A stretch of 64,000 nucleotides of DNA from Candidatus Babeliales bacterium (GTDB lineage Bacteria > Babelota > Babeliae > Babelales > JANWKD01), in assembly GCA_963762115.1 (NCBI GenBank), contig CAVXJH010000003.1, positions 320,001-384,000 on the forward strand, in the 5' to 3' direction. Shown here piece by piece: positions 51,527 to 54,169 of this stretch (position 1 is the first letter of the stretch; each line of letters starts with the position of its first letter). The notes beneath the pieces were generated by a model, which was not told where the DNA came from, made no database searches, and was given only the letters and a program-made list of their open reading frames with translations. A program made the position numbers and the translations under genes.

Positions 51527-54169
51527 TCAGGATAATTTAAAATCCTGTCGTGGCTCTATACCTAAAAGTGCATAGATCTCACTAGCAAATAATGTTTCTT
51601 TTTCATATAACATATTGGCAAGCGTTTCAAGTTTGTCACGATTACTTTTCAATAATTCTTTAACTTTCATATAAGAATTTTCTAATAACTTTTGAACTTC
51701 AGCATCAATCCGTTCAGCAGTTTTTTGAGAATACTGATATTCTCCCTGATTTTGCGTATAAACGACTGTTCCTAGTCCTTCTGACATACCATAAGAACAA
51801 ATCATTTTCCGCGCTATTTCAGTAGCTTTTTCAAAGTCATTAGACGCGCCCGTTGCAAGAACATTAAAAATAAGTTCTTCTGCGGCTCGCCCGCCTAAAC
51901 ATACCATAATAACTGCCAACATCTCATCTTTTGTTTGAGTATATTTTTCTCTTTCAGGTAATGAATGAGTAACTCCTAATGCTCTACCACGCGGAATGAT
52001 AGTCACCTTATGCAAGGGATCACTATGATCAGGTAATAATAACCTAACCAGAGCATGCCCTGATTCATGAAATGCGGTGATTTTTCTTTCTTCGGGCGAA
52101 AGTATAATTGTTTTTAATTCTTTACCAAGCATAACCTTATCACGCGCTTCTTCAAAATCATGCACCGTAATATTCTCTTGCTCTTGATTTTTAGAGCCAT
52201 GCAAGGCTGCTTCATTAACGAGATTTGCTAATTCTGCACCCGAAAATCCTGGCGTCCCACGAGCAATTTTATTTAAATTAACTGAAGAATCAAGTTTTAC
52301 CCCTTTGGCGTGTAGAGATAAAATCTTTTCACGACTTGTTACATCAGGATAAGGAACTTCCACTCTTCTATCAAACCTTCCCGGTCTTAATAATGCATTA
52401 TCCAATGACTCTGCACGATTTGTAGCAGCCATAACAATAACGGCACTTCCGTCAGAATCAAAGCCATCCATTTCTGTTAACAATTGATTTAATGTTTGAT
52501 TACGTTCTTCATGGCCACCAATACCCGTCACTCGTTTGGTACCAACAGCATCGATTTCATCAATGAAAATAATGCTTGGCTTATGCTTACGCGCTTGAGC
52601 AAATAAATCACGTACCCGAGATGCACCCACACCAACATACATTTCAACAAATTCTGAAGCACTTACCGAGAAAAATGGGCAATTAGCTTCACCGGCAACA
52701 GCCTTCGCAAGCAATGTTTTACCATTACCCGGATCACCAACCAATAAAATGCCTCGCGGAATTTTGGCACCAAGACGTTTATACCGTTCTGGGTTTTTTA
52801 AAAATTCAACAACATCACGCAATTCTTCTTTAGCTTCCTCTACACCAGCAACACTATCAAAAGTACATTTTACCTGAGAAGGCATAAACAATTTGCCCTT
52901 TGTGGCACCTTTTGCAGCTGAATTACTTGAAGATGACTGGTTTTTATGAGATTCAAGCAACGCTTTGTGTGCATCCTCAATATCTTGTTGGCCAACAGAT
53001 TCTTTATTTTTCTTAGAAGCATTAATTGCAGCCTTATTCATAAGATTAGCAAGATCAGCGCCACTAAAACCGGCTGTTTCTTCAGCAACCTTTTTTAAAT
53101 CTATATCAACACCCATCTTAAGCCCTTGAGCATTAATCTGTAATATTTGCTCACGACTAAGCGTATCAGGGAAAGATACTTCCACTCTTCTATCAAATCT
53201 TCCTGGCCTTAACAAAGCTTTATCAAGAACATCTGGCATATTAGTAGCAGCTATAACAATAACCGATGAACCTGCCGTATCAAAGCCATCCATCTCCGTC
53301 AAAAGCTGATTAAGCGTTTGCTCACGTTCATCATGACCACCGCCAAAACCACTCCCACGCTGCCTGCCAATTGCATCAATTTCATCAATAAAAACAATAC
53401 TCGGCGCATGTTTACGTGCTTGCGCAAATAGATCTCGAACACGAGCAGCGCCAACACCGACAAACACTTCAATAAAATCTGAACCGGTTATGCTAAAAAA
53501 GGGACAATTTGCTTCTCCAGCAACAGCCTTTGCAAGCAATGTTTTACCATTACCCGGCTCCCCAACGAGCAGAACACCCCGTGTTACCTTTGCACCAAGA
53601 CGCTTGTATTTTTCAGGATTTCTTAAATAATCAACAACATCCTTAAGTTCTTCTTTAGCATCAGTTGCACCCGCAACTGATTTAAAATTTACCTTAATAG
53701 TTGAAGGCATAAACATTTTTGCCTTGCTTTTGCCCATACTAAAAATATTACTGCCGCCTCCAGACCCACGTGATTGTCTGAAAAAATACCATACGCCCAA
53801 CGGCATAAGTAAAAAAGATGCAAGTAACAATAAGTGCCAAAAACTAAATTGTGCTGCTAAAGGAGCAACGGAAAATTCAACACTGTGTTCTCGTAATAAA
53901 TCAAGGTTTTTAGGATTATCAGCAATTACCGCCTCAAATCGAGTCCCATCTTTCAAAATCCCATACACATCTTGCCCATTAATATGGACCGATTTAACTT
54001 CATTGTTTTCAATAGCATCAAGATAGGTTGAATATGAAATGTTTTTCACATGACGCGTATAATCGGTTAATTTCGTGAGTAATGCTATGGAAATCACAAA
54101 AAAGAGCACTACAAAGACTAAGTGCTTGGGTCCGCGCGCAAAAGGATTATTTTTTAGTTTTTGTTTCAT
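51527..54169 (-). CDS. ftsH: FtsH protease with two tandem AAA+ modules
   Basis: 2 TM plus periplasmic domain; GEPGNGKT and GDPGNGKT; two FIDEIDA; two [10 protein letters not shown]; one HESGH. Confidence 0.95.

Follow-up and report, generated by a model that had tools for sequence, protein, structure and literature searches.

An FtsH protease with two complete tandem AAA+ modules: an old architecture in Babeliales

What is an FtsH protease with two AAA+ modules, and what would the second module do? The question is raised by ftsH of a Candidatus Babeliales bacterium, which lies on the minus strand at 51527..54169 of the window analysed here, a stretch of 64,000 nucleotides (contig CAVXJH010000003.1 of assembly GCA_963762115.1, positions 320,001 to 384,000). 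Passages of two FtsH papers (PMC9601784, PMC8943139) describe one AAA+ module per subunit. The Babeliales gene, which has no internal stop, encodes 880 residues with two such modules, here called D1 and D2, and a single M41 zinc protease domain. By its anchor, AAA module, M41 domain, family model and locus the protein is an FtsH; the one-module architecture is what it lacks. Comparison with related sequences confirms that the tandem FtsH is real, old and conserved.

Pfam assigns to the 880-residue frame one FtsH_ext match (PF06480, residues 19-101), two AAA, two AAA_lid_3 and one Peptidase_M41 match (689-867), and the family model TIGR01241 scores 1173 bits against a cut-off of 600, a score that the second module inflates. 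The membrane anchor (53774..54130, on the minus strand like all parts of the gene) comprises FtsH_ext and two predicted transmembrane helices, TM1 (14-39) and TM2 (110-132). It is placed by the Pfam match, by helices in the structure model and by hydrophobic stretches in the sequence, and the predicted topology, two transmembrane helices with a periplasmic domain, is that of FtsH. D1 (52946..53722; residues 150-408) has Walker A K209, an FVG pore loop 1, Walker B D262-E263, DGF at 294-296, N310, R321/R324 and a full pore loop 2 (a 15-residue stretch); TNR, GTP, NEAA, RD and the hinge Gly are absent from it. A Ser-rich linker of low model confidence (52898..52945; residues 409-424) leads to D2 (52124..52897; residues 425-682), with Walker A K484, a YVG pore loop 1, Walker B D537-E538, DGF at 568-570, N584 and R595/R598. 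Its pore loop 2 is shortened and variable, and TNR, RGTPG, NEAA, RD and the hinge G682 are retained. From the lid residue A400 to F437 the spacing is 37 residues; it is 31-40 (median 37) in 113 homologs (alignment A1, from which 7 of 120 database matches were left out). The M41 domain (51569..52105; residues 689-867) carries HESGH at residue 701 (52055-52069), E764 and D778. All the motifs that an initial annotation of the sequence had listed are present, namely FMPS (153/428), Walker A (GEPGNGKT at 203, GDPGNGKT at 478), the pore loops (FVGVG at 236, YVGVG at 511), Walker B (FIDEID at 260/535), the arginine finger (RPGRFDR at 321/595) and HESGH, together with the Ser-rich linker.

The two modules are related but diverged. 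The alignment of D1 (150-408) with D2 (425-684) covers 258 residues, of which 169 (65.5%) are identical; of these 169, only 89 are encoded by the same codon. Identity by codon position is 73% (first), 84% (second) and 47% (third). This codon divergence points to an old duplication under selection rather than an echo of the assembly. The AAA-AAA-M41 architecture, with the N-terminal region, is shared by 119 of the best 120 database matches (query included) at 57-93% identity, the remaining match having four AAA modules; the named homologs among these matches are Babeliales or Dependentiae. With the third-position identity and the shared codons, this result upholds the annotation's claim that the copies are not an assembly duplication.

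The tandem form is patchily distributed. It is present in full in 12 of 40 relatives. When the whole order was searched with the D1-D2 region, it was intact in 43 of 214 genomes, the query genome included; the 214 genomes are at least 85% complete, no more than 6 candidates were scored in each, and broken copies score below the threshold. By family, it occurs in 3/3 genomes of f1 besides the query genome, 8/9 of f11, 2/2 of f17, 6/8 of f5, 16/32 of f3, 2/4 of f2 and 5/68 of f19, and in none of 14 other families. Of four negative genomes that were checked, two carry single-module genes; the other two each carry a broken tandem copy, interrupted by internal stops in G048 and divided between contigs in G070. 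Given the two broken copies, the tandem count is at least 45 of 214, about one in five genomes, and conservation across the phylum is rejected for this sample of the order. A membrane-FtsH match was found in 99 of 100 f3 and f19 genomes, one each except in G047; therefore, the tandem and single forms replace each other. Of the 19 main loci compared (13 tandem, 6 single), 17 have tolQ/tolR upstream and 17 have rpsT downstream; the six single-module loci all have both.

In the query genome (1.53 Mb, 95% complete), a genome search found no second FtsH; six other matches are AAA proteins, 24-33% identical, without HEXXH in the frames read. The same genome encodes divergent AAA proteins with hydrophobic, signal-peptide-like N-termini and no HEXXH (L002-L004, L006 and L007), which may belong to a secreted AAA family reported for Babela in passages of PMC4378268. 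Elsewhere in the order, genome G004 has a second tandem AAA-AAA-M41 gene (L123, C1:208978-211146) 20 kb from the main gene, in which a short hydrophobic N-terminus replaces the TM-periplasmic-TM anchor; a similar anchor-less form is present in G036. Genome G016 has a 1194-residue open frame (C1:362618-366154) that apparently holds AAA-M41 twice.

Both modules appear to be active. The Walker A K/T, Walker B D/E, sensor-1 Asn, arginine fingers and DGF are 100% conserved in 119 D1 and 119 D2 modules, as is the pair formed by a pore-loop-2 Arg and a helix Asn (R271/N287 in D1, R546/N561 in D2), and the aromatic residue of pore loop 1 is F or Y in all 119 of each. The initial annotation had raised the prospect that one module would prove degenerate in relatives; across the 119 proteins neither has lost a catalytic residue. 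Passages on YME1 (10.1101/189316) and AFG3L2 (10.1101/551085) describe arginine fingers and DGF as acting on the neighbouring subunit and the Arg/Asn pair as positioning pore loop 2, and these residues were mapped onto D1 and D2 by motif. As the trans-acting elements are conserved in both modules, D1 and D2 would each need a neighbouring AAA module. The ratio of nonsynonymous to synonymous substitution rates (dN/dS) is 0.018-0.078 for D1 (7 pairs) and 0.047-0.079 for D2 (6 pairs; one further pair is saturated), values that are rough as dS exceeds 1 in the pairs, and it indicates purifying selection on both modules. Pfam layout, conservation and dN/dS agree with the annotated architecture of two complete AAA+ modules and one M41 domain in 880 residues, and they support the view that both modules are apparently working.

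How old is the duplication? In a phylogeny of the two modules, all 13 D1 sequences of a 48-row quick tree form one clade (support 98, starred); a 41-row subset supports D1 at 97 (starred) and D2 at 72. A separate duplication in each family is rejected by the approximately unbiased test for f1 (p 0.0035) and f11 (p 0.023). Trees of separate module halves had 107 rows and included only part of the f19 singles. The back halves of all 34 D1 form a clade (99, starred), with those of single-module genes intermingled with D2; in the front-half tree the single-module genes are intermingled with D1, and 32 of 34 D2 are placed elsewhere. A lid that evolves faster in D1 could draw D1 halves together in such trees. 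The tree of the non-duplicated parts (68 of 83 rows) largely follows families with the two forms interleaved, requiring 8 changes of state, 3 of them forced. An RpoB tree, which covers 28 of 30 genomes as the RpoB locus is broken in the other 2, has 7 changes, 5 of them imposed by branches with good support. Transfer of the whole gene from one family to another is not the preferred reading, as the tandem and single genes of f3 group together in their non-duplicated parts (97, starred); the middle part alone may have been transferred. The best fit is likely a single old duplication before several families split, followed by repeated loss. The two f17 genes (L018, L019) depart from the other families in that their D1 and D2 front halves group together (support 88, unstarred), possibly through gene conversion between the modules.

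One single-module gene, L049 (genome G050, C11:12929-16810), is nested among tandem genes. It combines D1-type I267, I311 and F333 with a D2-type lid, the D1-type residues extending to about 311-333, and is likely a tandem gene that collapsed by recombination into a D1/D2 chimera. Among 59 single-module genes only L049 has the D1-type residue at 311. It tells against a wider role for such collapse that at position 267, where D1 has I, 36 of 39 singles have V; most singles are therefore not simple recent revertants or chimeras. The proposition that all single-module FtsH of the order are recent revertants is not accepted, on the evidence of both positions.

The modules have also diverged in which ancestral features they keep. 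Relative to 59 single-module orthologs, D1 of 34 genome-derived tandem genes has lost nine conserved sites, all after residue 310 (TNR, lid and hinge): the R of TNR, R-G-P of RGTPG, the E of NEAA, R-D in the final helix of the lid and G-K at the hinge. In D2, 11 conserved sites are gone, 10 of them before residue 300 and mostly in pore loops 1 and 2 (Fisher p = 1.2e-4 for the partition, the sites not being independent). The hinge Gly, required for proteolysis by YME1 according to a passage of 10.1101/189316, is present in 34/34 D2 and 0/34 D1, and is thus kept only in the module adjoining the protease; in other lineages it is found in 22/29 last modules versus 2/23 first modules. Several of the states at the lost sites are frequent in FtsH at large: among 118 outside single-module representatives R311 is found in 109, E379 in 109, E283 in 93 and P366 in only 64, and T. 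thermophilus FtsH shows them as well. In the sequences compared, the ancestral features are split, D1 keeping pore loop 2 and D2 the lid and hinge residues next to the protease. TNR, RGTPG, NEAA and RD may therefore serve coupling to the protease. Such a split suggests two groups among the conserved FtsH residues, one probably required next to the protease (TNR, RGTPG, NEAA, RD and the hinge) and one, in the long Gly-rich pore loop 2, probably required on the entry side, a division that is testable in ordinary FtsH. In the multi-module lineages outside Babeliales, no rule that first modules keep pore loop 2 was found.

These outside lineages came from a profile search of 1.84 billion representatives, of which the best 150 matches were considered. 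Among them are 148 proteins: 118 AAA-M41, 16 two-module, 8 three-module, 1 four-module and 5 with other layouts; some of the two-module matches may be Babeliales paralogs and some first modules are degenerate. A search for longer proteins added one six-module and three two-module forms. Named lineages are Omnitrophota (six modules), Thermoleophilaceae (three) and Lachnospiraceae (two). The Omnitrophota protein (P0122, locus L157; 1861 residues) has a hydrophobic helix at its N-terminus and a single M41 domain with HEAGH. Its six AAA modules, with pairwise identities of 45-79%, each have the Walker A K and the Walker B DE; at five related loci the encoded version has one module. P0098, P0261, P0262, P0263, P0265, P0269 and P0292 are three- or four-module FtsH, one cluster being named Thermoleophilaceae. 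These forms share the (AAA)n-M41 layout and keep the catalytic residues in most modules, but they fall into sequence families of their own, their motifs differ from those of the Babeliales proteins, and their spacings (18-38) are mostly shorter. They appear to have originated independently; P0098 alone was placed on a tree with the Babeliales modules. Three proteins of about 1600 residues (P0176, P0178, P0184; one cluster Lachnospiraceae) have a precomputed PF01693 match and an ATPase-like region before AAA-AAA-M41.

How would such chains assemble? We consider it probable that the assembly is a hexamer in which a D1 ring sits on a D2 ring, and this in turn on a normal six-fold M41 ring. The FtsH hexamer and its protease ring are described in passages of PMC8943139. 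Six chains bring 12 modules, and with both types needing ring neighbours two rings would result. The double ring is favoured because an unchanged M41 domain fits a six-fold protease ring. In the 113 homologs, H701, E702, H705 and D778 are found in 113/113 and E764 and G682 each in 112/113. Across 133 tandem and 56 single sequences no M41 position is tandem-specific; 62 of 74 positions conserved in singles stay at 80% or more in tandems, the other 12 at 55-76%. As a ring of three chains would be expected to alter M41, its unchanged state points to a hexamer, and the collapse in L049 suggests that the anchor and M41 domain of the tandem lineage still suit a six-chain single ring. In the AlphaFold monomer, with a predicted local distance difference test (pLDDT) score of 80.8 and a predicted template-modelling score (pTM) of 0.53, D2 and M41 match AFG3L2 (Z 38.2, root-mean-square deviation (rmsd) 2.3 Å, 447 aligned residues). 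D1 and D2 together match D1+D2 of NVL and p97 loosely (Z 28.1-28.7, rmsd 6.5-9.3 Å, 482-497 aligned residues), with template-modelling scores by target of up to 0.61. The three-module P0261, modelled as a control from a 14-row alignment (pTM 0.38), gave 0.44-0.47 against targets of similar length, with rmsd 12-16 Å; the p97-like pose of the D1+D2 model is thus not automatic, although with so shallow an alignment the control is weak. A two-copy complex prediction for residues 160-659 scored 0.00 and gave no answer, which is evidence neither way. The double ring that the initial annotation proposed therefore stands in part: the unchanged M41 domain, a feature partition that fits stacking and the roughly p97-like monomer model support it indirectly, and the stronger unfolding or extraction power it attributed to the second ring is plausible by analogy with ClpA.

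In a double ring, substrate would enter between the membrane and D1. A passage of PMC7949044 describes a Gly-rich membrane linker that allows side entry of substrates in FtsH, and as D1 directly follows this linker it would meet the substrate first. D1 would grip by its FVG loop and long Gly-rich pore loop 2, the substrate would pass down a shared channel to the YVG loop of D2, and D2, hinged on the protease through G682, would deliver it to the HESGH sites. Joined by a flexible linker, the rings could move semi-independently, and the 12 ATPase sites would add grip and processivity, as D1 does in ClpA, where the abstract of PMC7568338 reports that D1 adds processivity and D2 is the stronger motor. 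The duplication could collapse back by recombination. More tentatively, the FtsH motor may be a stackable unit, with proteases of two, three, four and six tiers formed repeatedly, Babeliales flipping between one and two tiers at the same locus, the upper tier providing grip and the lower tier coupling to the protease, and a measurable gain in unfolding or membrane-extraction power. The contribution of a second ring is usually studied in ClpA or p97, whose rings differ strongly; same-locus orthologs with one or two nearly identical rings, plus a likely revertant, would offer a matched series on its value.

Several points weigh against the double ring and a gain from it. The searches detected no tandem form in about 169 of the order's 214 genomes, and with some four fifths of genomes lacking it and an apparent reversion in one lineage, a large general gain is unsupported. 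The monomer pTM is low, the linker is of low confidence and the fit to p97 is loose. The spacing of 37 residues (a Cdc48-like protein has 21) leaves room for other arrangements, and the module numbers 2, 3 and 6 seen in some forms all go evenly into a hexamer, a pattern that would also fit linkage within a ring. First modules of other multi-module lineages keep pore loop 2 less cleanly, and in AFG3L2 pore loop 2 touches the protease (a passage of 10.1101/551085), yet here it is D1 that keeps the loop.

One alternative concerns why the tandem form persists, and is compatible with a double ring. It holds that there is no net gain in power, a chance duplication having been locked in by complementary loss and undone by recombination between the front of D1 and the back of D2. 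We regard it as somewhat unlikely. The clean complementary loss between D1 and D2, the patchy distribution with its 7 state changes on the RpoB tree, and L049 as a likely revertant would all be accounted for, and passages of PMC9601784 show that it is still disputed whether one-ring FtsH is a weak unfoldase at all. Nothing in complementary loss demands that both ATPase sites be preserved, yet they are, and the independent expansions to two to six modules in other phyla also speak against this alternative.

A second alternative keeps the hexamer with a canonical D2-M41 core but makes D1 an ATPase on a flexible tether, its ring closing only transiently, so that it would be a substrate catcher, dislocase or regulator rather than a coaxial second motor. 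The linker fits this, its residues 410-423 having pLDDT below 50 and variable sequence, as does a spacing that exceeds that of the Cdc48-like protein; D1 has moreover lost several lid residues, and its E173 and E174 are kept at 50% and 67% versus 97% and 99% in D2. A loosely tethered D1 is nevertheless improbable in view of arginine fingers, DGF and both pore loops that are 95-100% kept in D1, a rate of evolution as slow as that of D2, and a spacing held narrowly at 31-40.

Less likely again is one pseudo-hexameric ring in which three chains alternate D1 and D2 over three protease domains. AAA rings linked in one chain are known from linked ClpX constructs and dynein-type rings. Both modules keep cis and trans residues, the linker is long, and forms with 2, 3 and 6 modules exist, including the six-module Omnitrophota protein with its one M41 domain. 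Set against this are an M41 domain without tandem-specific change, though interfaces of the protease ring are tightly packed (a passage of 10.1101/551085), the existence of four-module forms (P0098, P0262), same-locus orthologs that switch between one and two modules, and a monomer model closer to a stacked pair than the P0261 control. The contigs of four public sequencing runs cover the ftsH gene in pieces, and the sequencing-run search listed no RNA run and no run with half the words. An artefact of assembly or gene calling, for which it could be said that no listed public contig spans the whole gene, can be dismissed with near certainty, as the modules differ at 53% of third codon positions and independent assemblies give the same layout in 118 other proteins and 42 other intact genome copies.

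The double-ring reading sets the protein beside several known machines. Its best sequence and fold matches are canonical FtsH (TIGR01241, MEROPS M41; PDB 7vhp, 7tdo, 3kds, 2dhr/4eiw), AFG3L2 (6nyy) and YME1 (6az0). It has in common with canonical FtsH two predicted transmembrane helices, a periplasmic domain, the Gly-rich membrane linker, classical AAA, the Gly hinge and an M41 domain with HEXXH plus Asp. It differs by one further complete AAA module, which lies between the membrane linker and the module joined to the protease; the solved FtsH chains that match best (439-644 residues) do so piecewise along the 880-residue query. Like p97/VCP/Cdc48, VAT and NVL it has two tandem classical AAA modules per chain. 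Unlike p97 and Cdc48 it has no Cdc48 N-domain (no CDC48_N match; TIGR01243 scores 444 against a cut-off of 803), and unlike p97 it combines a membrane anchor, a protease in the same chain, FtsH-derived modules 65% identical to each other and a longer linker. D1 of p97 is not known to have an aromatic pore loop, in contrast to both modules of the tandem FtsH. The likeness to ClpA/ClpC-ClpP is one of proposed principle, 12 ATPase sites above a peptidase. The modules of ClpA come from different AAA clades and its peptidase partner, ClpP, is a serine enzyme on a chain of its own, unlike the single membrane-anchored chain found here. The tandem FtsH is thus not a Cdc48 or Clp member, though its way of working is likely that of a double-ring machine.

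The nearest published tandem FtsH-type domain is the component of MoxR-vWA "FtsH ternary" conflict systems, which in passages of PMC7159879 has a dead first copy, the N-terminal one without P-loop and Walker B, and a gene beside MoxR/vWA; the Babeliales gene differs in its two intact copies and its place at the housekeeping tol-ftsH-rpsT locus. No description of an intact tandem-AAA FtsH was found in the literature searched, mostly non-subscription papers with supplements excluded. A word search of the FtsH review PMC9020784 gave zero hits for "tandem", "two AAA" and "double", and passages of the 2026 review PMC12994072 gave zero for "tandem". Babela is reported, in passages of PMC4378268, to have expanded ATP-dependent zinc proteases and chaperones; the word FtsH does not occur in the search listing for that paper or for PMC4776705. 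If the double ring is true, the protein would be a three-tier, single-chain, membrane-anchored AAA protease, of a kind not found in the papers searched.

The gene stands in a conserved context. About 130 bp upstream of the start codon is a sigma-70-like promoter candidate (54300..54328, minus strand) with 11/12 consensus matches, the best of 17 sites found, where shuffles give 10.1 +/- 3.2. Further upstream, on the same strand, is a tolQ-tolR-(tolA-like)-(tolB-like) cluster (54408..57652), the context shared by tandem and single ftsH, in which the tolA and tolB names are inferred from position and a PD40 match. Downstream lies the rpmB-rpsT block (50934..51434, minus strand), with rpmB (L28) at 51231-51434 and rpsT (S20), part of the conserved context, at 50934-51206.

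Other genes of the window were noted in passing. A 430-residue protein at 60015-61307 (minus strand), with WD40 repeats and a weak Skp1/POZ-like N-terminal match just below the cut-off, is a candidate for eukaryote-like host interaction. At 48443-50878 (plus strand), two Lys/Glu-rich open reading frames (399 and 372 residues) have hydrophobic N-termini and no Pfam match, and neither was found in 20 regions of relatives. A stretch of lower GC content (about 30%) at 42109-45506 (minus strand) holds an 861-residue helicase-like open reading frame that ends in repeated Trp-rich units and adjoins a tyrosine recombinase-like gene, both labels being assigned from motifs by eye.

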